36,943 nucleotides of DNA, from positions 1 through 36,943 of IMG/VR virus record IMGVR_UViG_3300002092_000016. One strand, written 5' to 3'. Below the pieces are notes generated by a model. It was not told the DNA's origin. It was given only the letters and a program-made list of their open reading frames with translations, and searched no databases. Made by a program: the position numbers and the translations under genes. This document shows, piece by piece, positions 9,867 to 24,694 of the stretch. This DNA is from a virus (taxonomy: Duplodnaviria > Caudoviricetes). Within the stretch, counting starts at the first letter, position 1. Each line of letters opens with the position of its first letter.

Positions 9867-10015
9867 GGGGCGACCTCCACGGAATCATTTGTTTGTGGTG
9901 CTGCTTTTTCCTGTGGTTCAAGAACCTCAACAGTTGTAACAGCAGTAACAGTGTAATTATTAGAATAAGCAGTGTAATCACCAATGACAACTTTTGTAAG
10001 TTTGCTATTTTTCAT
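9863..10015 (-). CDS. 50-aa hypothetical protein (absent from ORF track)
   Basis: MKNSKLTKVVIGDY...VEVAP*; ATGA overlap upstream and GTGA overlap downstream. Confidence 0.7.
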   Translation of the reverse strand: MKNSKLTKVVIGDYTAYSNNYTVTAVTTVEVLEPQEKAAPQTNDSVEVAP

Positions 10016-10851
10016 AGATTTGGGTATTTAGCAAGCAAGTATGCAGATATAGCACTTATTTCAGCACCGGACAATGCCCTGTCATAAACAAGGAGTTCTC
10101 TAATTTTACAGCTGGTGAAGAATTTATAATCTTGCTCAAAACCTGCACCTATTATAAGACCTTGGTTAATTGGAGTTGCTCCATAATTTGTGATGGAAGA
10201 AGAAGCGTTTAGAGACCCATTGAGGTAAAAGTAAGCATTTCCACTTGAGGATGGGTTTACTGACAACCCCAACACTGCTGCAGTAGGTGTTGCTGGAATT
10301 GCCGTAGTTCCGAAATTCTGTTCTCCAGTATAAGGTTTACCGATAACTGCCCCCCATTTAGGACTATAATAAAATGGAGATGTGGTTAATCCTGTTTCAA
10401 GTCCTGTTGCAGTTGCCCCCATGCTTGATACATAGGATTTTGTAGACACAATTAAACCTTTGCTATTTCCAAAAAGTTCAGTTCCAGAAACAGGGAATGT
10501 TGAATCTGCACTTATGTTTGCAATATAAGTAACTGGTGTGGTTTCGGATTGGGTAGTTGTAAAAATAGGAGGTGTAGCAAAAGCTGATGAACCATCAAAC
10601 TCAACTCCATCTCCTTGCTTGAGTGGGTATCCGTTCACTTTTACAGCATCAAAACCATTGCCGCTTAAATCTTTCCAAGTAATTACCGTACCTTCTACCT
10701 CAACATCTGCACCTGTTACATCCAATGTAGAAGAAGACAAAGAAGTTTCTAGCCACAACCTCAATCCAGACAAAGAGGAAGGGCTAAATGAGGTTGCCCC
10801 CAATGTCCTAGAAGCACACCCTAATCCCAAACTGAGTCCGAGTTGTGGCAT
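10012..10851 (-). CDS. LamG/concanavalin-like virion-associated lectin-fold protein
   Basis: SPSSLSGLRLWL, WKDLSGNG, FYLNG, IRELLVYDRALS...YLLAKY. Confidence 0.75.
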   Translation of the reverse strand: MPQLGLSLGLGCASRTLGATSFSPSSLSGLRLWLETSLSSSTLDVTGADVEVEGTVITWKDLSGNGFDAVKVNGYPLKQGDGVEFDGSSAFATPPIFTTTQSETTPVTYIANISADSTFPVSGTELFGNSKGLIVSTKSYVSSMGATATGLETGLTTSPFYYSPKWGAVIGKPYTGEQNFGTTAIPATPTAAVLGLSVNPSSSGNAYFYLNGSLNASSSITNYGATPINQGLIIGAGFEQDYKFFTSCKIRELLVYDRALSGAEISAISAYLLAKYPNL

Positions 10852-12986: not shown

Positions 12987-15900
12987 TTATTGGGGATTTT
13001 GCTCGTCTTCTACCGGATTAGAGACCGGATGATGCCCAGTCATGTGGTGGTATCTCCTGAGAATCTCTTTTTTACGTTCCACTGCTGCCTTGTACCTCTG
13101 TAAATCATCCTCATCCAAGGTCTTGACCCATTGCTTGTCTGTGGCACGAGACCCTGTGAATGGGTGATTAACGCTTGCCGTGAACCCTCTGGTGATCTCG
13201 TGGTGACTCATGCCTGACTCATCAAGGATCTTCATCTGCTTGGCAACGGATTCCTCGTTGGAATCCTCCAAAGCATACCGGAGTTGTTGGAACTTGGAGA
13301 CGGGGTAGGAACCCTTCTGGTCGTTCTCAGGGTAGTTTGCATGCACCCACTTTTTAGCCAAGGGGTACATGGTCGTGATTGGGGAGTACCGATGGATCTG
13401 AACCCCTGCCGAGGTGAGCATCTGTTCCCACCAAGAGATCGGGTTGGCTTTACCCGTTTGCGTCCATTGCCCCACCATTGATTGCATGCTCATGGGCACG
13501 ATCCCAGCAATGATGTCGGCAATGGCATTGCCCACGGTTGTGTGTTCCCCACGGTAATTGACCCCAAAGACCCCTTCCTGCACAAACCGTCCAAAGATCG
13601 GAGAGATACGTCCACCGATGAACCCTGTGGTATTGGTAGCCAACTTGTACATGTCCTCTGGAACTGACCGGAGACCGTAGTACTTGTTGCCAACACGGAT
13701 CTCAAAGGGGTGCTCCCACTCGTAATCGTCGTTGGTCAGTTTGTTGAAGATTCGTGCACCAACAAACTGAACGATGGCAAGGAACGCTAGTGCTTGGAGT
13801 TGCTCAGCACCAACTTTGCCCCCGACCAGACCCTTGGCAGCTTGAGCCACAAACCGACCACGTGCCTCAAGGAAATCAGGGGCAAGAAGGATGATCTGCA
13901 AAGCATGTCGGATCGTGGGGTTGTGCCCCATGTCGGTGTAGTTGAGGTGACCGTAGGCAGCATTGGACTGCCGTGCTGACAGGTTCTTGATCTGCCATTC
14001 GTCAACCGTGCCTTTGGCTAGGTCTTTCTTGTACCTGTCCATGTTCCTTTCCAAAATATGGGTGTAGGTCTGGAACTTGAGGGAAGGAATGTACTGGGAG
14101 AACAGGTAGTGCTGGTAGGCATCCACGGTGTCTGCTGCTTTTCCTCCCAATCCCCAACCAATTTTACGGAGTCCCATCGTGATGAGGTTGGAGTTGTTGT
14201 CCCCAACCCCCTCCATAAAGAGGGACTGACTCAACCGATCATGGGCAAGCATGAGTCCGTGATCAGCAGCATCCTTCATGTCAGGGTTGCGGAGATCGAT
14301 CTTGGGTAGACCAGCAAACGGGTTGATCCGGTGACCGATGGCATGGATGCCTTCCTGCACTTGGTGGAAGGGTGAGAAGGAAAGCATGGTGCCCTTGGCA
14401 TACCCTTGAGCCTTGAGTCCAAAGTTGGCGACAGATTTGGTCGCATTGAGGAAAGGGTTTCCCGTTTTGCTATTGATCCACCTCGTAATGGCAGAGGAGG
14501 AAAGTGCGTTATTGAGATGGGTAGCAATCTCAGGGTGAACAGCAAGGTCTCCTTTGGACAGGATCATGCTGCCGTCATCTGCCTTACCAGCAAACTTCCA
14601 ATCGTGCAGTGCTGGTTGGTCAAGTTTCTTGTAATCCTCGGTGCCCTCGTCAGCAGCATCAGGGTAGACCAAGTGGGTTGTTCCCTTGTCCGTTGTCGTG
14701 TCTTTGCCTGACCCTCTGCCTGAGAGAAGGGGTCTGCCATCTGATGCCTTGAGACCCCTCAATTCCTCCACAAACCTCCGTGAGTTGATGGCATTGGACA
14801 TGTCATTCATGTAGAGGCCGAGCAGCTTGGCAATATCCTTGGTCTCCGGTTGGTATCCGTTGGATTCCCCCTCGTGGTAGGTGTCAAAGGTTCTCTCTTG
14901 GGAGAACTTGAAAAACTCACTCAGTCTCTTGGGAGTGGAACCGGATGGTGCTTGTGGCTCGGTCTTGTAGACATGGGGCACATAGTTCTCCCGTGTACCC
15001 AAATCCAGACCCCACGAGTTGCCACGTTTGAGGAGGATGTCAAAGGTGCTCTTGATCTTATTGGCAAGTGCTTCTTGTTCTGGGGTGAAATTGAGTGCTG
15101 CCTCGTACCCTGCTTTGTATTTCTCAATAGCAGTCTTGGCACGGAGACGGAGCAGGGTTTTATCACCACCTGCTTCCAACCAGTTCGTGATGCCCTCACG
15201 GGTCACAAGGTTAGGGGCAACCTTTTCTACCTCGTGCTGTGCCCTTTCAATCTCGTTGGTGGATTGTTGGGATCTGCTTGACCACTTGAGGAGAGACTTC
15301 TTGAAAGGGGAGGCAGCAGGGAGATCCCTGATTGTCCTCTGGAGGTTACGGAGGGTTTCCTCACTCTTTTCACGGAGGGTGGGAGGGGGAGGGGTTTTCC
15401 CCGTGATGATGGGGGTATTCTTTTGGAAAAGAGTTTGCCCACCTTCAGAGATGGTCTGACGCATTTCTGGGGTGATTGAGACTTTCCAGATAGGGGTATG
15501 ATTTATTTCCTGCTCTGAAACCTCGTCGTATTTATCCCAAACTGAAATAGGAATGTCTTTGTCTTCCATTGCATCGACATATCCATTCTTTGAGAGCTTC
15601 TGGATAGAAATAGTTCCATCGTTTTCTTTCCATATTCTGTAAGCGTCATCGGGAGTTGACCATATTGTGCCACTACCTTTTATTTTTTGTTTGGCTTCTT
15701 CAATAGGCAATACTCCCTCCTCAACCTTTGCCCCCCACTTCTTGACATACTTGCCAATTTCGTTTGGAAGGATCTGGTCGTAGAAACCTTTCATACCTTC
15801 ACCACCAATCGTTAAGTCTTTGCCATTCAGTGTACCAGTGTCACCACCAGACATGATCTTTTCTGCCATCCCTTTCCCTATGACTTCATCCAAAGTCTTT

Positions 15901-18900
15901 CCCCCTGCTTGGGGATGGTTAGATGGAAACTTTCCATCAGTTCCTACCCTTCCAGCAAACGTACTTTTCCCCCGTTTAATGGCATTAACAAGAGTTGTTC
16001 CATCAGAAGATTTTGTCCATTCAATAGAATCAACGGATTGGCGAATAGAATCTTCATACCTATCCACTTGATCAATTCCCTTTGTCCACCCAATCCATTC
16101 CTTACCGGATGCTACTGCATCCCGTAAGGCACGTTTGAACATCTGGATGCTCCAGTCCTTACGGAAGGGGGCATCTGGGATACCTTCTGTTCCATGCACT
16201 CTAACATTGTAGTCTTTTTCAGTGTCTCTGTATTTTACTGCAAAATCTTGAGCCTCATCATGCGTCTTAAAATTTCCAAGCACCTCATCTCCTGTTCGCA
16301 CAGTAAAAGGATATTCTCCATTTTCTCCTGCATACCCTCTCTCTCTTCCTTTCTGATGCCTGTCAGACTGAATCTCTTCAATGAACAAACCATCCTTACC
16401 AGAGGCATCCTTGCGTTCGTCTAGCCTCATGTGGGCTACATAGTTGGGGATGTCGGAGAAGTGGGGGGAGGTGTAGGTGTTTCCGTTATCAGCTTTTTCT
16501 TTCTGTCTTTGGTCAAATGCTTTTTTAGCTTTCCAATAACTATTCTGGTTTAATAATTCTAATGCTTTGGCTGTAGCGATTTCAGGTGTTGACCAATATT
16601 GCCCCCCAAACCCTTGAGCATGTTTTTGTCCAGCTGGGATGATGCCAAATCCCTGCCCTTTATTCATTCCGTTTTGATCTTGAATAACGTACCAACCTTC
16701 TGGTAGTGCCGTGATCGTTGCAGGAGCTTGAAACTGTTCTAGGGGTTCAGTGTTTGCTGTAGGTAAAGTCAGCACTACCTCCCTGTAGTTCTCACCGTTG
16801 GGGAGTACCCATGTGGAGTGTTTGGGGTTATTCTCCCTGTTCTGTGCATCAGCAAGGTACTCACGAACTGCTTGATCGTATGCCGAATAATTTTCGGATA
16901 TTCGTGCCTCTTCTTTTAGAGATTCAAGGTCTTCTTGTGTCCACCTTTTTTTAACGCCACCCAGAACCTTCTCCTCAAACTTCACCGACCCCTCATTCTT
17001 GAGGTAGTCCAGCACCTCGGCCTTGGTGACGGTCTTTTTCCCCTCTAAAAACCCATCCAAGTTTGACCACTTGATCTCGTCAGGTTTGACCCCAGATCCC
17101 TTGGCAGGGTCAATGATGGCACGAATCTGCTCCACAGATGCCTTGTTGGGCATCTTGTCGGAGACGGTCTTCTGGAGTTGGGAATAGAAATCTTCCTTGG
17201 GATCATCTTTCTGGAAGAGTACACCGTGTTTCTTACTATAGAATCTTGGGTCTTGAGGAGTTGTGTATTTGGGGTTTTTAGCTAACACTAATCCACCCAC
17301 TTGAATCACCCTATCTGCACCAATAACAGGTTGACCTGTTTTGCGATCATAGAACCATGAGTGCCTTGCTGGATTCATTCCAAGCTGAACATAAGAGGGG
17401 TCTTTTATTGCTGCCTCTGCTTCAGTTTTTGCAGACGTGGGAGTTGATGCCTCCCATGCTCCAAGCATCCTTGCAAAACTATTTTTATGTAATTCATCAG
17501 TAGCAATCCCCAAGGCAGCATCTGGATTGGATATAAAAACCACATCATTTGCTATTGCCACAGGTTCATATCCAACAATCTTTCCTAATTTGACTCCGTT
17601 GGCATCATGCACTGATACAATCCAAACCCCATAATCACGATAAGCAGGTATATCCAAACGCAACCCAACCATATCTCCATCTTTAAGGTATTTTAATGCA
17701 TGACCAACTTGTTTTCTTTGATCATCTTTTAAGGATGACATCAATTCTGACTTGGTTGCTGGTTTTGGAACGGAGTCCATTTCCCTATAAGGCATGTATC
17801 TTTCAACCAACTTGATGTATTCTTCCTGTGATATCTTCTTATCACGGTAATCTTTAGCTGCCTTTACAACCTCTGGGATTTTCTTGGTGACATCCTTAAA
17901 GTCTACTTCATCTTTCTGGAACCGGATGTCGTTGCTCTCGGAGTTGAAGCGTTGGGAAAGGGGGATGACGTTGCCGTCAGAGTCACGGGTGATTGGGTCT
18001 GCTGATTTGATTTGAGAGGGGTGGGTCACTAGGATCTCGTCGCCATTTGCAAGAACATACCCATCATTTCCAAGTTGCTTTAGCCTTTCTAACCCCCTTT
18101 CTCCCTTTCCGTCATCCCAATCGGTTATGTCTCCCCCAAGATGCCGCCCAAGGGAATCCCAATTTTTCCCAACAAACGGGTTTTGAAAAACAATATATGC
18201 CCTTTTTCTGTATTTATTTTTCTCCCCTTCTGGCAAATGAGAGGAATGATTTTTGTCTGTGGAAAAAAACATACCCTTTATTGGCAAAAACCCTCCAGTA
18301 TTGCTCCCAGCTTTATCCATGTCATAGGAGCTAAACTCCGCGTTTGTTCCATGCCATGCCATGATTGCACCTGCCTCCTTTGCGGCCTCGTCCACCAACC
18401 GTTGCTGTGACTCTGTGTCACCGGATTTGACTGCTGCATCGTACTCATCGTCCCTCTGGAACTTATTGACCCCCATTGCATCATTGGCATCCGAGGGTTC
18501 CACCCGTTCACTGATTGCCCACTCGTGCAGGGTCTGGGCTAGAAGGTCACGTGCTTTCTCAAGGTCATTAAAGTGGGAGTTGCTCCCCATTTGATACCCA
18601 TGGAGTTTCTGGATGATCGTGTCAAGCCACTGCTTGATGGCACCAGCAACGGTCTTAAAAAGAGTCGGATCTGCTTTTTGCAACCGATCCCACATATCCT
18701 TGTTCCCAAGGTTGTTTCCAAGGAAGTCAGCAATGACTTCATCCACCCGTTCTTCCGGTTGGTAGAGACGTTTTTCCAAATCCACTCTCCCCATGTCCTT
18801 GATCATGGGCAAGAGTTGATCCTTTAGCTTCTTGGCAAGGTCAGGATACTGCTCTGACAAAGAGTGCCACAACTCGTGACCGAGAGTGAAAAGATGGGGA

Positions 18901-21344
18901 CGATCCCCATCGATGTTCAGAAACACATACCCCCGTAATTCAAAGGAGGTATTGATTAACCCATTCCCTGCATCCCCTGACTCTGTTTTGTAGAGGACGA
19001 GTTTCTGCCCAAAGATCCGAGCTATTCGGTCTGCGAATAGGTAGGATGGTTCCTTCCGTAGTTGATCAAGTTCCTCTCCGGTTGCGGCTCGAACCCTAGT
19101 GACCGTGCCCGTTCCATCTTTGCCACTTGCTTGAGATGCCAAGCTGCCATTGAGCTTGGTGATAGGTCTTTGTGCCTCGGCATTACTGACGGTGACGGTG
19201 AGTTGCTCATCAGGTGTCTTTATAGGATCACTTGAGGTATCCGTCAACTCCGGTACGTGGATGGTGACGGATGGGTCTGTGGGAGTCCTTCCCTCATCCA
19301 GAACCGTCTTGGCATCCTCACTGGTGGAGGTAGTCCAGTCATTGCCATCCCTCATTGTCCTTTCATGCTGGGCAATCAGGTGCTCCCTCATGGCATCCGT
19401 GTAGGCAGTTTCTGCTGCATCCCTGTCCGAAAAAGAGACCGTGTGGGTTTCTCCCTCTGGGGTTGTGGTGACCACGTGGAACGTGCCGTCGTAATTATTG
19501 ACCAACTTGGGGGCATCAGGGGAATTAATGATGTCGAGTACTTGCTGGTAGTTGTCCTTTCGGAGTTGTTCCCCTGCCTTGATGTCTTCCTCAGTGCGTT
19601 TTTTCCAACCGTCTGTGATTGCTTTCAGACGTTGATCTTCCGGTAGTTGGGAAATCCGAGTGGCCTCTTCATGGGAAAACCCTGCTTCCTTGAGCACCAT
19701 TGGGTCTGCTGCATTCTTGGCAGCTTGCTTGGCAACCTCTGGGTCAACCTTGCCACCACCGGAGAGGACATGCATGGCACCCCCCATGATTCCGAGTTGG
19801 ATGAAGAGGGAGGGAGTTTCCTTGAGAATGTTCCAATACTCCTGAGCAAAGTCCTCACCAGCATTGATGTCCTTGTTCCAAGCATGCTCCAACTGTGCGT
19901 ACAGGGTCTTGGCAAGGTTGCCAGCACTGAGCATCAACGTGGAACCTGCCGTGTGCTTGAGTACCCCGACAACCGTGGGTGCCACCTTGCCGAGCAGATG
20001 GATGCCCTTGGTGCCGACCACCGTATTGACGGCAGCAGGGACAAGGGATCTCCAGTTAGCTTCCGAGGCAGACATGTTGGGGTTCTCTGCCAACCTCTTG
20101 AGGGTTTCATTGGCAATCTCATTGGCACCAAATGCAATTTCACCCATGACCGGAACCAAGAACGGAACAACCTGTGGGATCAGACCTGCCAGACCCGTTG
20201 CCGTGTCGGACACAAACCCCTTCCATCCCTTGTGGACTGGGGGTGCATTAATGACACTCTGGTCAAAGGTTCTGACCTTTTGAGCCAAGAGGATGTCATT
20301 GTATTGGTCTTGGTACTTCTGCTTCTCCTCTGGGGTGGTGGCAGCATTCCGTGCTTTCTCCGCTTGCAGCAGGTTGCTGACTTCCCCGTACCGATTAAAA
20401 CTCTCGGCTGAGTTGACAAAGGCATTGTAGACCGATCCCAAGTTGCCCACTCCTTCCCCCATGTGGGTGGCCTTGACGTACTGCTGGGCAAGTCCCAAGA
20501 CCGTGTTGAGTTGGTCGTTTGGCAAACCACGGAGGTATGTCCGTGGGTCGGTGTAGGTGGGAAATTCCTTGGAGTAATTATTGGCCTTTGCTTCTGGGGT
20601 GTTCCCCGTCAAGGCATCAACAAACTTTTTCGCCAACTGTCCGTCTGGGGTATTGAAGGATGCTTGGGTGGGTTTGTAGACCGAGTTAAAGGCAGCAAGT
20701 TTGTCGGAATCAGACAACCCCTTGAGGGCATCCTGATGGGCAGATTGCCAGTCATTAAACCTTTTTAGGGGTGGCACGGACATCCCCTTCTCGGCATCTG
20801 AAAAGGCATCCTGCACTGCTTGGGTCTTGAGGGCATCGATGGCACCGGCACGGGAGTCGTGCTGCTCAAAGACCCCTTGGAGGTTCTTACGGAAGGTGCC
20901 GACATTGTCGGTGGGATCAAACTTGTAGTGTTTTTCCAGTTGGGCTTGATACCAACCGTAGTTATCAACCACATCACTCATTGCTGCTCCGGTCAAATGG
21001 GAGACGGCAGCATAGGCAGCAACCTGATCACGGTATCCTTGGGGATCTGTATTCTTTTGAGAATTTAAGACTGCCTGATCTGCCTGACCTCCGAGGTTGA
21101 CGGGGTCGTAGATCATTGCTTTGACCCGTTGCTCTTGGGATTGGTAGGCAGGGGTTGAGGTCAGATCGGTGCCAAAGGGTCTCTGGTTACCTCCGTTGTC
21201 TTGGATTGCCGTATCAACCTCCGGTGAGGAGGTGAGGTCATGGAACTTGTTTTCTAATCGGGCAACATACAACTGCCCTGCTGGATCGGGAGTTGATGGT
21301 GGTATTTCAGAAGAGGAGGGAGCATAGGTGAGGTTATCAGCCAT
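12987..21344 (-). CDS. Giant ejection (gp16-position) polyvalent protein: zincin peptidase, ADP-ribosyltransferase-like and other effector modules
   Basis: 2785 aa; third internal-virion gene, before the fibre; HELWH at aa 823-827; AWHGT...GMFFS...DEILV...QIKSA; FIEEIQSD module. Confidence 0.85.
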   Translation of the reverse strand: MADNLTYAPSSSEIPPSTPDPAGQLYVARLENKFHDLTSSPEVDTAIQDNGGNQRPFGTDLTSTPAYQSQEQRVKAMIYDPVNLGGQADQAVLNSQKNTDPQGYRDQVAAYAAVSHLTGAAMSDVVDNYGWYQAQLEKHYKFDPTDNVGTFRKNLQGVFEQHDSRAGAIDALKTQAVQDAFSDAEKGMSVPPLKRFNDWQSAHQDALKGLSDSDKLAAFNSVYKPTQASFNTPDGQLAKKFVDALTGNTPEAKANNYSKEFPTYTDPRTYLRGLPNDQLNTVLGLAQQYVKATHMGEGVGNLGSVYNAFVNSAESFNRYGEVSNLLQAEKARNAATTPEEKQKYQDQYNDILLAQKVRTFDQSVINAPPVHKGWKGFVSDTATGLAGLIPQVVPFLVPVMGEIAFGANEIANETLKRLAENPNMSASEANWRSLVPAAVNTVVGTKGIHLLGKVAPTVVGVLKHTAGSTLMLSAGNLAKTLYAQLEHAWNKDINAGEDFAQEYWNILKETPSLFIQLGIMGGAMHVLSGGGKVDPEVAKQAAKNAADPMVLKEAGFSHEEATRISQLPEDQRLKAITDGWKKRTEEDIKAGEQLRKDNYQQVLDIINSPDAPKLVNNYDGTFHVVTTTPEGETHTVSFSDRDAAETAYTDAMREHLIAQHERTMRDGNDWTTSTSEDAKTVLDEGRTPTDPSVTIHVPELTDTSSDPIKTPDEQLTVTVSNAEAQRPITKLNGSLASQASGKDGTGTVTRVRAATGEELDQLRKEPSYLFADRIARIFGQKLVLYKTESGDAGNGLINTSFELRGYVFLNIDGDRPHLFTLGHELWHSLSEQYPDLAKKLKDQLLPMIKDMGRVDLEKRLYQPEERVDEVIADFLGNNLGNKDMWDRLQKADPTLFKTVAGAIKQWLDTIIQKLHGYQMGSNSHFNDLEKARDLLAQTLHEWAISERVEPSDANDAMGVNKFQRDDEYDAAVKSGDTESQQRLVDEAAKEAGAIMAWHGTNAEFSSYDMDKAGSNTGGFLPIKGMFFSTDKNHSSHLPEGEKNKYRKRAYIVFQNPFVGKNWDSLGRHLGGDITDWDDGKGERGLERLKQLGNDGYVLANGDEILVTHPSQIKSADPITRDSDGNVIPLSQRFNSESNDIRFQKDEVDFKDVTKKIPEVVKAAKDYRDKKISQEEYIKLVERYMPYREMDSVPKPATKSELMSSLKDDQRKQVGHALKYLKDGDMVGLRLDIPAYRDYGVWIVSVHDANGVKLGKIVGYEPVAIANDVVFISNPDAALGIATDELHKNSFARMLGAWEASTPTSAKTEAEAAIKDPSYVQLGMNPARHSWFYDRKTGQPVIGADRVIQVGGLVLAKNPKYTTPQDPRFYSKKHGVLFQKDDPKEDFYSQLQKTVSDKMPNKASVEQIRAIIDPAKGSGVKPDEIKWSNLDGFLEGKKTVTKAEVLDYLKNEGSVKFEEKVLGGVKKRWTQEDLESLKEEARISENYSAYDQAVREYLADAQNRENNPKHSTWVLPNGENYREVVLTLPTANTEPLEQFQAPATITALPEGWYVIQDQNGMNKGQGFGIIPAGQKHAQGFGGQYWSTPEIATAKALELLNQNSYWKAKKAFDQRQKEKADNGNTYTSPHFSDIPNYVAHMRLDERKDASGKDGLFIEEIQSDRHQKGRERGYAGENGEYPFTVRTGDEVLGNFKTHDEAQDFAVKYRDTEKDYNVRVHGTEGIPDAPFRKDWSIQMFKRALRDAVASGKEWIGWTKGIDQVDRYEDSIRQSVDSIEWTKSSDGTTLVNAIKRGKSTFAGRVGTDGKFPSNHPQAGGKTLDEVIGKGMAEKIMSGGDTGTLNGKDLTIGGEGMKGFYDQILPNEIGKYVKKWGAKVEEGVLPIEEAKQKIKGSGTIWSTPDDAYRIWKENDGTISIQKLSKNGYVDAMEDKDIPISVWDKYDEVSEQEINHTPIWKVSITPEMRQTISEGGQTLFQKNTPIITGKTPPPPTLREKSEETLRNLQRTIRDLPAASPFKKSLLKWSSRSQQSTNEIERAQHEVEKVAPNLVTREGITNWLEAGGDKTLLRLRAKTAIEKYKAGYEAALNFTPEQEALANKIKSTFDILLKRGNSWGLDLGTRENYVPHVYKTEPQAPSGSTPKRLSEFFKFSQERTFDTYHEGESNGYQPETKDIAKLLGLYMNDMSNAINSRRFVEELRGLKASDGRPLLSGRGSGKDTTTDKGTTHLVYPDAADEGTEDYKKLDQPALHDWKFAGKADDGSMILSKGDLAVHPEIATHLNNALSSSAITRWINSKTGNPFLNATKSVANFGLKAQGYAKGTMLSFSPFHQVQEGIHAIGHRINPFAGLPKIDLRNPDMKDAADHGLMLAHDRLSQSLFMEGVGDNNSNLITMGLRKIGWGLGGKAADTVDAYQHYLFSQYIPSLKFQTYTHILERNMDRYKKDLAKGTVDEWQIKNLSARQSNAAYGHLNYTDMGHNPTIRHALQIILLAPDFLEARGRFVAQAAKGLVGGKVGAEQLQALAFLAIVQFVGARIFNKLTNDDYEWEHPFEIRVGNKYYGLRSVPEDMYKLATNTTGFIGGRISPIFGRFVQEGVFGVNYRGEHTTVGNAIADIIAGIVPMSMQSMVGQWTQTGKANPISWWEQMLTSAGVQIHRYSPITTMYPLAKKWVHANYPENDQKGSYPVSKFQQLRYALEDSNEESVAKQMKILDESGMSHHEITRGFTASVNHPFTGSRATDKQWVKTLDEDDLQRYKAAVERKKEILRRYHHMTGHHPVSNPVEDEQNPQ

Positions 21345-21347
21345 AAA

Positions 21348-23438
21348 TTAAGAATTGAGCATATTGATCTCTGCGTTCCTACGGTTCACGAGCAACGGGG
21401 AGTGTTTCCCTTCTACAGTGACCCACTTGTACTCAGCCATTTTCTTGGCTAGAGCACCCAAGTCACCTCGTGAGGCTTTAATGACCTTGGCACCTGCTCC
21501 CGTGTTGAAATCAAACGAGGTCAATGCCGTCTGCTGTGCTGGTGTCAAAGTCATGCCCACATCAGATGCTGCCTTCACCACATTGGATGTGTGGGTGGAG
21601 AGTTCTTGGGTCAGTCGTGCCGAGGCATCCTCCTCACTGATGGAAGACTCACCCTTCTTGGCATGGGTGCCGTAACCGATAGACCCCGTGTCTTTGTCAG
21701 AATCGGTGTAGGCATGTGCCGTGAATCCCTCTTGTTGCTTTACAAAGGCAACCGTCTCTTGACTTACGGAAGACGTATCATTGCTGACAACCGTGGGGTT
21801 GTTGGCAACATCACTAGATGTAGGGGTGGCATCCGAGGTCTTGCCCTTAGTGGAATTTGGGTGGAAGAAATTGTAGATAGCCCCGTGTGGGGGTGCCGTC
21901 TTGAGGGGAGTCATGGCATCCTGACCCTGTTGATATTTGGTCATGGCAGAATTGATTCTGTCTTGAGCCTCCTTCATCGAGGTGGGGGCACCCTCTGGGT
22001 ACTTGTCACGTCCGATCTGACCTCCCTGCATGACCTGCTCTTGAATACCTTGCAGCTTGTAGTAGGCAGCATTGTGGGCATCTGCCTCCTCAATGGAGGT
22101 AGGGGTTGCCACAAAATCACCAAAGTATCCACCCTTGAGGTTGGTATCCAGTTGCTTGCTCACAAACTGAGCAATCTTGGTTTCTGGCTTGAGGTTGCCG
22201 TTGTTGGCAGGGTCGGCAAGTTCTCCACGTCTCTTATCAAGTTGCTTGATTAGGTCATCCGTCTGGGGGGAGGGGACATTGCCCATGATCCAGAGTTTGC
22301 GATCCATGTACTGCTTGGCAACCGGATCGGCATTAGCACCCTTGTCAGGAAAGGTGCCGACCAGATTGTTCCCTTGGTTGAAATTAGCCTCTCCTTTAGC
22401 AGTCCCTGCCCACGGATTGGTCAGGTATTGACGGACGGCAGCTTGAGCATCCTTTCCTGTTGCATCATCAATGCCAGTGAGTGCTTTGAACTGGGGATCA
22501 TTTTCAAACTGGGATGCATCTTTGATGGTTCCAGCATCAATCTGGCTTTTGAAAAAACTGGCAGTCTTCCAGATGTTGTCATTTTTGACCACGTCCACGA
22601 CCCCTGCAATTTTTTTTACGTTTGCGGCATCAAGGTTGGGATACCCCTTGAGGGTAGTTCCGGTCTTGGATGCTGCTTGGAAGTCTTTGGCAATGGCTCC
22701 ATTGGGATTGGTCACGATCTCGGTGACGGCACCATTGTAATCAATGGAGACTTCTTTCTGTTTGTTAAGGGATAGCTGCTGCTCCTTGGAAAGGAGTCCC
22801 CGTCCATTGGCAGCATCGTACTGGGCATCAAATGCCTTCCAGTCACCTTTCTTTGCTGCTTCCTGTAGTCCGGTTAGGGCATCCACGGCATCGTCTTGGT
22901 GCTGCTGGGAGTAGGCTTGATTTGCTGCCGTTGCCATCCCCGTGTGGTATGTATGCATGACGTTATGCATCATAGCTCTCTGCTCCCAAGGGGTGAGTTG
23001 GTTCTGACCGTTGACCCCGTTGATCAGGTTGGCACCGTTTTCCCCTGCTGCATCTGCCCAAGCACTCGGCCACTGGGAGACGGGAAGTTGCGATTTCTTC
23101 TCGTCGTACATTTTAGAAACATCAGTCTGGTTCTGGTAAAACTTGAGTGTTCCGGTGTACTGGGCTTGCTCGTATGCCTTCTTTTTTTGCTCGGCATCGA
23201 TCTGCATGACCGTTCCTGCAACCTGTCCGGTAGCAGTGGAGATTTCTCGACCCAAGTGCATCTGGGCATCGTACTCAATCCCTGCCTTGGCAGGGTCTTG
23301 CATGGCACCTTGGAATCCACGTGCAATGTCACTTTTGGCCTGATCTCCCACACGGTCAGTGGGGAAACGGTAATCCGAGACAGGTGTAAAGACACCTGTG
23401 GGTGCGTTGGGAATGTCGGTGAGGGGGATGGTTGCCAT
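21348..23438 (-). CDS. Internal virion protein with C-terminal GH24 lysozyme domain
   Basis: Helical body; FVKQQEGF...AYTD...SIGYGT...FNTGAG...LVNRRNAE. Confidence 0.85.
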   Translation of the reverse strand: MATIPLTDIPNAPTGVFTPVSDYRFPTDRVGDQAKSDIARGFQGAMQDPAKAGIEYDAQMHLGREISTATGQVAGTVMQIDAEQKKKAYEQAQYTGTLKFYQNQTDVSKMYDEKKSQLPVSQWPSAWADAAGENGANLINGVNGQNQLTPWEQRAMMHNVMHTYHTGMATAANQAYSQQHQDDAVDALTGLQEAAKKGDWKAFDAQYDAANGRGLLSKEQQLSLNKQKEVSIDYNGAVTEIVTNPNGAIAKDFQAASKTGTTLKGYPNLDAANVKKIAGVVDVVKNDNIWKTASFFKSQIDAGTIKDASQFENDPQFKALTGIDDATGKDAQAAVRQYLTNPWAGTAKGEANFNQGNNLVGTFPDKGANADPVAKQYMDRKLWIMGNVPSPQTDDLIKQLDKRRGELADPANNGNLKPETKIAQFVSKQLDTNLKGGYFGDFVATPTSIEEADAHNAAYYKLQGIQEQVMQGGQIGRDKYPEGAPTSMKEAQDRINSAMTKYQQGQDAMTPLKTAPPHGAIYNFFHPNSTKGKTSDATPTSSDVANNPTVVSNDTSSVSQETVAFVKQQEGFTAHAYTDSDKDTGSIGYGTHAKKGESSISEEDASARLTQELSTHTSNVVKAASDVGMTLTPAQQTALTSFDFNTGAGAKVIKASRGDLGALAKKMAEYKWVTVEGKHSPLLVNRRNAEINMLNS

Positions 23439-23441
23439 AGG

Positions 23442-24251
23442 TCAACGAAGGGAAGTCCACGAGGTCATTTGCGGAGTGAACCCAATGGACGCATTAGCCT
23501 GACGTTGTGACCCTAGCATATTGGTATCCAGTAATGACGGTGCCTTGGAGGAGTAGTAGGAGGCAGTTCCGATGGCAGAGGCAGCAGCACCGATACCAGC
23601 AATGGCAGAGGAATACCCTTGGGTGACCGTTGCGTTGGCAGCATTGTTGGCTTGCTGCTGTTGGACTCCGACTCCAGCAATCCCTGCTGTTTGTGACCAA
23701 TCTGCCATTGCCCCAGCATACTCAAATTGCTTGGCAGTTTCACGGGTGAGTGCTGCTTGGTAGCTGCTCATGGAACCCTGCCAATCGGTGTTCATGGCAG
23801 TTAAATTGGTGTTGTAGGCAGCATCCATGCGTTGGAGTTGCTGGATGCCCCCTTGGTAGGCTTGAACGACCAGAGGACTGCCAGAATCAGCAGTGACACC
23901 GGAGGAGGCATAGGTGGCTTTAGTGGAGGAATTGGATTGCTCGGCTTGCATGACCATCCGGTTTTCCTGTTCAAATCCTGCCTTTTCCGTGCTCCGTGCC
24001 GACTGGTGGTAGATGGCAGCATTGGTGTCATACTGCTGTGCTTGAGCAATGGCAGTCTTGTAGTTCATGTCTGCCTGATATTTGGCAATCTCCGTCTGTG
24101 CCTCGATCTGCCTTTTAGAAAGGTAGGCATTGGAGGCAGCAGCACCACGTTGGGCACTGGCAGATTCTTGGGACGAATAGATGGAATACCCTGCCCCAGC
24201 AACGGCAGCAGCAGCAGTGACCCCTAGGGCAATGGTGCTTATTGGAAACAT
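23442..24251 (-). CDS. Internal virion (ejection) protein, gp14 position
   Basis: A/Q-rich; hydrophobic N-terminus; YASSGV...GSPL motif. Confidence 0.8.
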   Translation of the reverse strand: MFPISTIALGVTAAAAVAGAGYSIYSSQESASAQRGAAASNAYLSKRQIEAQTEIAKYQADMNYKTAIAQAQQYDTNAAIYHQSARSTEKAGFEQENRMVMQAEQSNSSTKATYASSGVTADSGSPLVVQAYQGGIQQLQRMDAAYNTNLTAMNTDWQGSMSSYQAALTRETAKQFEYAGAMADWSQTAGIAGVGVQQQQANNAANATVTQGYSSAIAGIGAAASAIGTASYYSSKAPSLLDTNMLGSQRQANASIGFTPQMTSWTSLR

Positions 24252-24694
24252 AGTGCCTCCTTGGTTAGGTATTGTTGACGGAATCCCTGTGGGAGCAGGT
24301 CGTTGTCACAATAGGTGATCTCCTCGGCAATCTTGTCTGGGTCAGTCTCATTGAAGGGATTGGCATGGATGGTCAGGAGGATTGAATCCTCGTGAAACAC
24401 AATGACCCGACACCGATTGGGGACAGTGATCTCCATGTGGGGTGCAGAAAGCATCACGTGCTCACCCTCCTCGTTGACTACCTCGATCCGTCCCTTGATC
24501 AGGAGGAACGGGTGGGTGGTCTTATGGGTTCTGGTGCACCACAACTGACCAGCAGGGACGTTTCCCTGACGGACATACAAACCCTCGGTAAAGTGGTGGA
24601 TCATCTCAAAATCTGCTTGGGGTAAGAGGGCACATTCCTTTGCAAGAACGTCCATCTTTCTCTTATGCGTCAGATGATTTGAAAGGTGATCCAT
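24239..24694 (-). CDS. Cupin-fold protein
   Basis: HHFTEGLYVR...PAG...HKTTHPFLLIKG...TIHAN. Confidence 0.75.
   Translation of the reverse strand: MDHLSNHLTHKRKMDVLAKECALLPQADFEMIHHFTEGLYVRQGNVPAGQLWCTRTHKTTHPFLLIKGRIEVVNEEGEHVMLSAPHMEITVPNRCRVIVFHEDSILLTIHANPFNETDPDKIAEEITYCDNDLLPQGFRQQYLTKEALCFQ

Follow-up and report, generated by a model that had tools for sequence, protein, structure and literature searches.

The 36,943-base record of a virus of the Caudoviricetes, IMGVR_UViG_3300002092_000016 (hereafter the window, which is the entire record), encodes a polyvalent protein of 2785 amino acids (aa), in which a predicted zincin-like peptidase domain is followed by three modules whose borders carry one short word, FQ[KR][DN]. 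These words are probably sites at which the resident zincin cuts its own chain, and they appear to double as points at which modules are swapped. We think self-cutting likely because the tag changes with the type of zincin and is mostly missing where the zincin is missing, and this matching of protease and tag is what the locus adds to the known polyvalent proteins. The parts of the protein are listed below by their positions in the window; L001, P0002 and P0003 are its three close relatives.

12987..21344, minus strand: polyvalent protein, 2785 aa, the complete open reading frame
19245..21344, minus strand: N-terminal scaffold, aa 1-700, 83-88% identical in L001, P0002 and P0003
18501..19094, minus strand: predicted zincin-like peptidase domain, aa 751-948, with H823, E824, H827 and E869
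18450..18461, minus strand: junction 1, FQRD, aa 962-965
17922..18449, minus strand: module 1, ADP-ribosyltransferase (ART) of polyvalent proteins, Pfam PF18760
17910..17921, minus strand: junction 2, FQKD, aa 1142-1145, with 14 bases common to junction 3
17217..17909, minus strand: module 2, mobile alpha/beta domain, function unassigned, with the lowest third-codon GC content
17205..17216, minus strand: junction 3, FQKD, aa 1377-1380
15429..17204, minus strand: module 3, mobile module of 590 aa with conserved blocks and variable inserts
15417..15428, minus strand: junction 4, FQKN, aa 1973-1976
12990..15416, minus strand: C-terminal scaffold, aa 1977-2785, 92-95% identical in the three nearest relatives; 119 homologues

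Junction words and the borders of exchanged modules

The word begins at F962, F1142, F1377 and F1973; none of the phage's other real proteins has it, the capsid, portal and scaffold proteins included. Among 5000 shuffles none reached three or more matches and 8 reached two, for a pattern that was picked after the fact. In the three close relatives both ends of the protein are kept, and whole modules are gained, lost or replaced within 7 residues of the words. Homology ends near junction 1 at 965 (P0002), 969 (P0003) and 967 (L001); homology to P0003 stops at 1144, near F1142; homology to P0002 restarts at 1377, at junction 3; and at junction 4 the restarts lie at 1967/1968 and 1973 (L001, P0003). 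The high-identity segment borders at 965, 969, 1144, 1377, 1968 and 1973 come from the window and P0002 comparisons, and these six exchange borders are not mutually independent; the windows of 7 residues on either side of the words make up 4.6% of aa 700-2000.

The relatives differ in what lies between the kept ends. L001 retains aa 1-967 (74.5% identity) and 1967-2785 (93%) around an unrelated middle, whose borders bear YQKD and a pair of words, FQRD and FQKG, spaced 13 residues from each other. The latter pair of words, at aa 1586-1602 of the L001 protein, resembles an emptied cassette slot. In P0002, module 1 is replaced except for its tail, module 2 is absent, as from its lineage in general, and a version of module 3 is kept; the middle of P0003 holds another cargo and then an ART before the C-terminal scaffold. 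At the DNA level, contigs join position 17202 to 17908 and skip 705 bases (235 codons, exactly module 2), with 14 letters that fit both sides; they come from two of the four runs compared, both of one study. Their loose end at 18448 reads as P0002 sequence, and they hence belong to the same lineage and are not an independent event. In this one lineage, module 2 has been lost or gained through the DNA homology of the words.

Three of the four junctions were modeled, and F962, F1142 and F1377 fall in low-confidence flanks of well-folded domains: the predicted local distance difference test (pLDDT) is below 50 at aa 957-965, around junction 1, and in the model of module 2, junction 3 belongs to a flank of low confidence. 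The chain has a repeated junction consensus at its domain borders, as a self-cleaving viral polyprotein would. The original prediction had named exactly these four positions, and had expected module gain and loss to map to them, domain edges to coincide with them, and module content to vary among relatives; homology borders and the contig joint bear out the mapping of gain and loss, the predicted models the domain edges, and the relatives the varying content.

The words are retained as peptides rather than, in general, as DNA. Where junction positions within a gene have the same amino acid, the same codon is used at 45 of 98 positions, with 45.8 expected from codon usage (11 genes; sites were chosen by per-gene patterns written after the borders were seen, L035 was left out as a near copy of L032, and L057 had one site). 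Since the codons at the junctions resemble one another no more than expected from codon usage, it is the peptide that is conserved in the tag. Junctions 2 and 3 do have a 14-base repeat in common, and a junction of L001 matches junction 1 of the window in 17 of 18 bases. To judge from these comparisons, the words are not DNA repeats in general, and junctions 2 and 3 are one and seem to have served as one. The original prediction had allowed for cleavage, recombination or both; selection at the peptide level agrees with the former, and a DNA swap point was found in one case.

The predicted zincin and the junction word

The HELWH motif at aa 823-827 (18878..18864) is, as originally predicted, accompanied by a downstream Glu, which is E869, and it is the sole HExxH in the protein. 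H823, E824, H827 and E869 are all conserved in 153 of the 160 related domains that cover them, and a homologue search with the domain gave 1884 representatives. Its AlphaFold model (pLDDT 86) places H823, E824 and H827 in a helix at model residues 66-82 and E869 in a helix at 113-128, and the order of its elements, an N-terminal helix, a three-stranded sheet and two helices, agrees with the zincin fold. The model matches 12 predicted viral structures, several of them named as polyvalent proteins. In a second fold comparison with solved structures the best Z was 5.9, on unrelated chains; the domain has no match in the Pfam library, and no cultured phage matched it in the search. Complex prediction with zinc and a 32-residue junction-2 peptide scored 0.00, in a run without control folds. 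The domain, itself exchangeable between lineages, shares 65% identity with that of L001, and the scaffolds share 83% and 93%.

The 28 close family members comprise 15 with a HELWH-type domain, 6 with an EExxH-type domain and 7 with neither. A word of the form [FY][SQ] stands at the last border in 19 of the 21 zincin-bearing members, as judged by eye. In the seven zincin-less members, P0021 retains a clear word and P0004 has RFSS directly before a different word. A matrix trained on unrelated proteins scored the last border in 11 of the 21 zincin-bearing and in none of the seven zincin-less members. In FastTree phylogenies, which were rooted at the midpoint and given no clade test, the FQ-type zincins fall into a single clade (support 0.98), which spans scaffolds that are only 51-57% alike. 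The module 3 tree shows no grouping by word: module 3 of P0002, with FQK, is sister to that of P0011, with FSL (support 1.0), and P0011 and P0015 have an EExxH-type zincin and R-F-S in common while their modules lie apart. The wording follows the zincin clade and not the cargo.

A pair of sister phages presents the same picture. P0005 has a zincin and FQ borders and P0004 has neither, their C-terminal scaffolds being 96.7% identical and their head and tail DNA 93-94%; the zincin profile found no match in the 93%-complete record of P0004, with both controls detected. Moreover, L001 and P0004 have a cargo that is 86% identical between them, but L001 encloses it in YQKD and FQRD and P0004 in other words. 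[FY][SQ] is also enriched just behind the zincin: of 139 independent proteins, 69 have it within the next 40 residues, and random windows contain it in 22.5% of cases; ahead of the domain it is seen in 28 of 128. One further homologue search yielded only 4 proteins. L035 and L028, which have words but no profile match, were rejected as counter-examples, EExxH strings being visible by eye upstream.

The exact word FQ[KR][DN] was found behind none of the 139 other zincins; it is apparently local to the clade of the window, the general form being, on these comparisons, a word that varies by lineage behind an aromatic residue. The tail of module 2, examined for words in 120 of its 398 relatives, ends in FQK in the window, FMP in the closest relatives (60% identical), and elsewhere FS(K/R)RQ, FSP, FQAP or a YAKGG-type word, and the word behind this module is often repeated in front of it. 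The ART tail reads DIR and then FQK, FSK, YSF or FMP in different hosts, and module 3 likewise ends in FQK, FSL, FST, FQQ, FQA or YAKGG by host. When two junctions of one protein are paired, the residue that comes after the aromatic is the same in 17 of 24 pairs (permutation null 9.2, p 0.0008), and in 12 of 18 (null 7.9, p 0.01) once the cluster of the window is removed. This test covered the 204 of 388 proteins with a mechanically defined anchor, of which 28, in 19 clusters, had two or more; the anchor behind the zincin was the first [FY][SQ] and is hence confined to two letters, and with cargo-only anchors 7 of 11 pairs share the residue against 2.6 expected.

Other border elements were also seen. 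Many polyvalent proteins (P0134-P0168, P0223-P0239, L053, L056) have a junction of another class, [YF][AK]xGG, on the flanks of modules 2 and 3. In a cultured relative, Microcystis phage Mel-JY33, a protein of 4012 aa contains LFQ/LYQ words and a single HExxH. A 60-residue, probably helical element with [EQN]xG[FSA][IV]-like flanking words borders cargo in 16 of 388 proteins, namely P0004 (aa 736-795 and 1461-1518), P0006, P0012 and 13 further ones; none of its carriers has either zincin profile, and three have other HExxH strings. This element may be a second release device. The zincin-less P0008, P0010, P0021 and L020 have a RadC-like JAB domain (by Pfam for the three P proteins), and their cargo mostly ends in V/L-R/Q/N-E-E/N-like words.

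Cargo modules and genomic setting

Module 1 scores 43.3 bits with PF18760 (ART-PolyVal), above the curated cut-off of 31.2. The active site of this family is an H-Y-D triad (PMC5512222, section 9); the corresponding positions, assigned by eye with no alignment to a solved enzyme, would be H998, F1026-F1027 in place of Y, and D1102/E1103. For module 2, 398 relatives were found, all within other long proteins, and the positions RLDIPAY, W, H and QxG are invariant. Its modeled core (aa 1152-1371; predicted template-modeling score 0.80) found no match in either of two solved-structure searches, which does not establish a new fold. Its match to PF25735 is weak and below the cut-off, no family scores above cut-off, and Atlas gave no usable match; it is a widespread mobile domain and a candidate enzyme. 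Module 3 occurs in 57 viral loci and, among the matches listed, in 8 of 39 other proteins (P0002, 5, 11, 15, 18, 19, 23, 24). Sequence-level searches gave it no Pfam, NCBIfam or solved-structure match; a likeness to GNAT acetyltransferases is conjectural. Its only Atlas matches, all under 0.9, are viral clusters without a name. Searching solved structures by sequence gave nothing usable in general, and the N-terminal scaffold (aa 1-700) has no family above cut-off in profile searches. In Pelagibacter phage HTVC028P, module 3 lies in gp34 (L080 6029-8893), a separate gene of 954 aa between ejection genes, with no HExxH and no FS or FQ words by the patterns used.

Of the effector cassettes that had been predicted, module 1 has turned out to be an ART-PolyVal domain and, by family knowledge, an anti-host effector; for modules 2 and 3 the term is a guess, inferred only, because they match no family above cut-off. 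The claim that the modules are AT-rich survives in part. The three 60-base samples behind it were correct (30.0, 36.7 and 60.0% GC), but they are extreme against whole modules 1-3, at 48, 41 and 45% versus 53% at the protein ends. Third-codon GC is 0.51, 0.32 and 0.43 in the modules versus 0.60 and 0.62 at the ends, and the drop suggests imported DNA. In L001 the contrast is small (0.42 versus 0.48 and 0.50), and AT-richness was dropped as a general module marker.

The gene is part of one minus-strand block. It follows the terminase, portal and capsid genes, two genes for the tail tube, one for an internal virion protein (phrog_418) and one for a lysozyme-bearing protein of 696 aa, and is itself followed by a tail fibre gene. 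This is the gene order of podophage ejection genes. We call the product an ejection protein because of this order only; it is likely the last of three such proteins, packed in the particle and injected. Like other polyvalent proteins, it is encoded among the virion genes of a phage with terminase and portal, and joins several unrelated domains in one chain with an architecture that varies among relatives. Between portal and capsid lies a 316-aa gene with a match (E 2e-11) to a PHROG that bears the label protease; it occupies the scaffold position, and the PHROG that it matches best has no assigned function. The window also has an integrase-like gene with a score below cut-off, and DNA near-identical to the window was found in freshwater sequencing runs. 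Elsewhere, a laminin-G-like gene (10012-10851) has a third-codon GC of 0.27 against 0.51-0.67 in 15 other genes measured, and is likely a recent import in the tail region. The 151-aa gene at 24239-24694, 44% identical in the closest relative L005 and 84% in the more distant L006, appears by these identities to be a swapped gene between conserved neighbours, and at 21245-21826, 580 bases of the lysozyme-bearing gene are exchanged for 490 other bases in a related lineage.

Proposed self-cleavage, its rivals and known systems

In the mechanism we favor, fixed N- and C-terminal scaffolds would hold an exchangeable middle, and the predicted zincin (aa 751-948) would cut at or beside each FQ[KR][DN] word. 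The products would be a scaffold-plus-protease piece, three cargo proteins and the C-terminal scaffold, the cut possibly occurring before packaging, in the head or after injection. Module 1 would then ADP-ribosylate a host target, as family knowledge suggests. The repeated words would also supply short DNA homology, through which a module could come or go without a shift of frame, each of its two ends keeping a usable site. We infer the cut, the zincin as cutter, the position of the cut within the word and its timing.

Several observations weigh against this mechanism. 1) Homology also breaks within modules, far from the FQ words (1111; 1458, 1624, 1671, 1722, 1754), and one high-identity segment ends at 2009; segments end inside modules, which are therefore mosaics too. 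2) Immediately behind the domain, [FY][SQ] is missing in 70 of 139 related zincins; the zincins of P0017 and P0098 are divergent and come without such a word, and P0021 has no recognisable zincin, yet YFQA at its last border. 3) P0003 has an imported internal YSIQ junction of another type, and P0269 and P0295 mix FS and FQ. 4) When 117 proteins were tested without bias for words that recur in the same chain behind the zincin, the result was 2.12 against 2.00 at random (p 0.93), and 4 of the 11 matrix hits lie off the junction, with F962 and F1973 missed. 5) The zincin model found no match among solved structures at E 0.001, only weak rows such as IrrE, PPEP-3, CapP and others. 6) The N4 virion RNA polymerase contains such a domain, yet is packaged uncut (PMC5512222, section 8). 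In addition, joint inheritance of blocks, together with crossovers in conserved module tails, could lie behind part of the match between zincin and word.

The words might instead be recombination joints only, that is short in-frame DNA homologies without a peptide role. The 14 bases common to junctions 2 and 3, the contigs that omit exactly module 2 and the 17 of 18 bases matching in L001 all fit this, but junction codons are no more alike than chance, and the words differ by zincin type and are mostly missing without a zincin; we consider it unlikely. It is likewise improbable, if by a hair less so, that a phage head or host protease cuts the words while the zincin targets a host protein or the cell wall. 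The protease-labelled PHROG match of the 316-aa gene and the word retained in the zincin-less P0021 are in its favor, as are proposals of cell-wall or host targets for such domains (10.64898/2026.04.10.717836; 10.1101/2020.03.07.982082; PMC5512222, section 8). However, the word is not the same in sister phages whose portal-scaffold DNA is 94% identical, it is missing from the capsid, portal and scaffold proteins, and the 316-aa protein has the scaffold position and a best PHROG of unknown function.

Peptide-level conservation and linker position would fit equally well if the words were bound and not cut, as docking or unfolding signals, for example in head packing or in one-by-one threading through the ejection channel; indeed, the virion RNA polymerase of N4 enters the particle in one piece, although its packaging depends on the peptidase region (PMC5512222, section 8). 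The catalytic residues kept in nearly all related domains speak against such a role, as does HTVC028P, where module 3, being part of a separate gene without such words, can exist apart, and we give it little chance. That the words are chance or leftover linker composition is highly improbable: the post hoc pattern and the blank unbiased test allow for it, but the shuffles, the exchange borders and precise DNA joint on the words, and the enrichment after unrelated zincins oppose it, and border mapping has already largely refuted it.

Extending self-cleavage by the resident zincin, we tentatively propose, while leaning slightly against it, that polyvalent proteins are true polyproteins. Each lineage's zincin would read its own aromatic-led word, incoming cargo would be refitted with the resident word, and zincin-less lineages would switch to another release device, the 60-residue helical element with ExGxI-like flanks. 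Were this lock-and-key code true, domain borders and mature products could be read from sequence across thousands of phage proteins, which would also be a source of a family of small sequence-specific proteases.

Self-processing of polyvalent proteins, and their analogy to viral polyproteins, were proposed in 2017 (Iyer et al., PMC5512222, sections 8 and 34). The window protein resembles the proteins described there as a large product of the virion block that joins HExxH, ART-PolyVal and uncharacterised domains, and its relatives carry LPD1, LPD5 and RadC, as those do. The main-text passages of that work contain no junction word, cut site or matching of protease to word ('linker' has no hits), though its supplementary alignments may show the word; and in contrast to the zincins treated there, that of the window is without a Pfam library match. 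DdrB of phage P1 and the N4 virion RNA polymerase are likewise virion proteins with a metallopeptidase domain, and DdrB undergoes processing prior to packaging (cited in PMC5512222, section 8), but its cutter and site are not shown, the N4 protein is uncut, and neither is described there with repeated tags. The zincin/RNA polymerase polyproteins of crAss-like phages (10.1101/2020.03.07.982082) and phi24B gp47 (10.64898/2026.04.10.717836) are giant podophage virion proteins with a metallopeptidase domain that are proposed to be ejected. They differ in that cleavage is suggested or a cell-wall role preferred, with no junction code in the relevant passages, and, unlike the crAss-like polyproteins, the window protein has no RNA polymerase domain by Pfam.

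Our literature searches, the coverage of which left out most subscription papers, found no description of the junction code. The question of whether and where polyvalent zincins cut has been open since 2017, and the locus offers four candidate sites and a catalytic residue, while natural swaps and losses of zincins among close relatives make the standing hypothesis directly testable. Should self-cleavage hold, the tags would mark out the injected products in their mature form, among them a widespread module without a matching solved fold, and would explain how cargo is exchanged without breaking the ejection scaffold. The polyproteins of RNA viruses combine one chain, a repeated short junction consensus and an embedded protease. 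The window protein differs in belonging to a DNA phage and in having a predicted metalloprotease and exchangeable cargo; the same analogy is also drawn in PMC5512222 (section 34).

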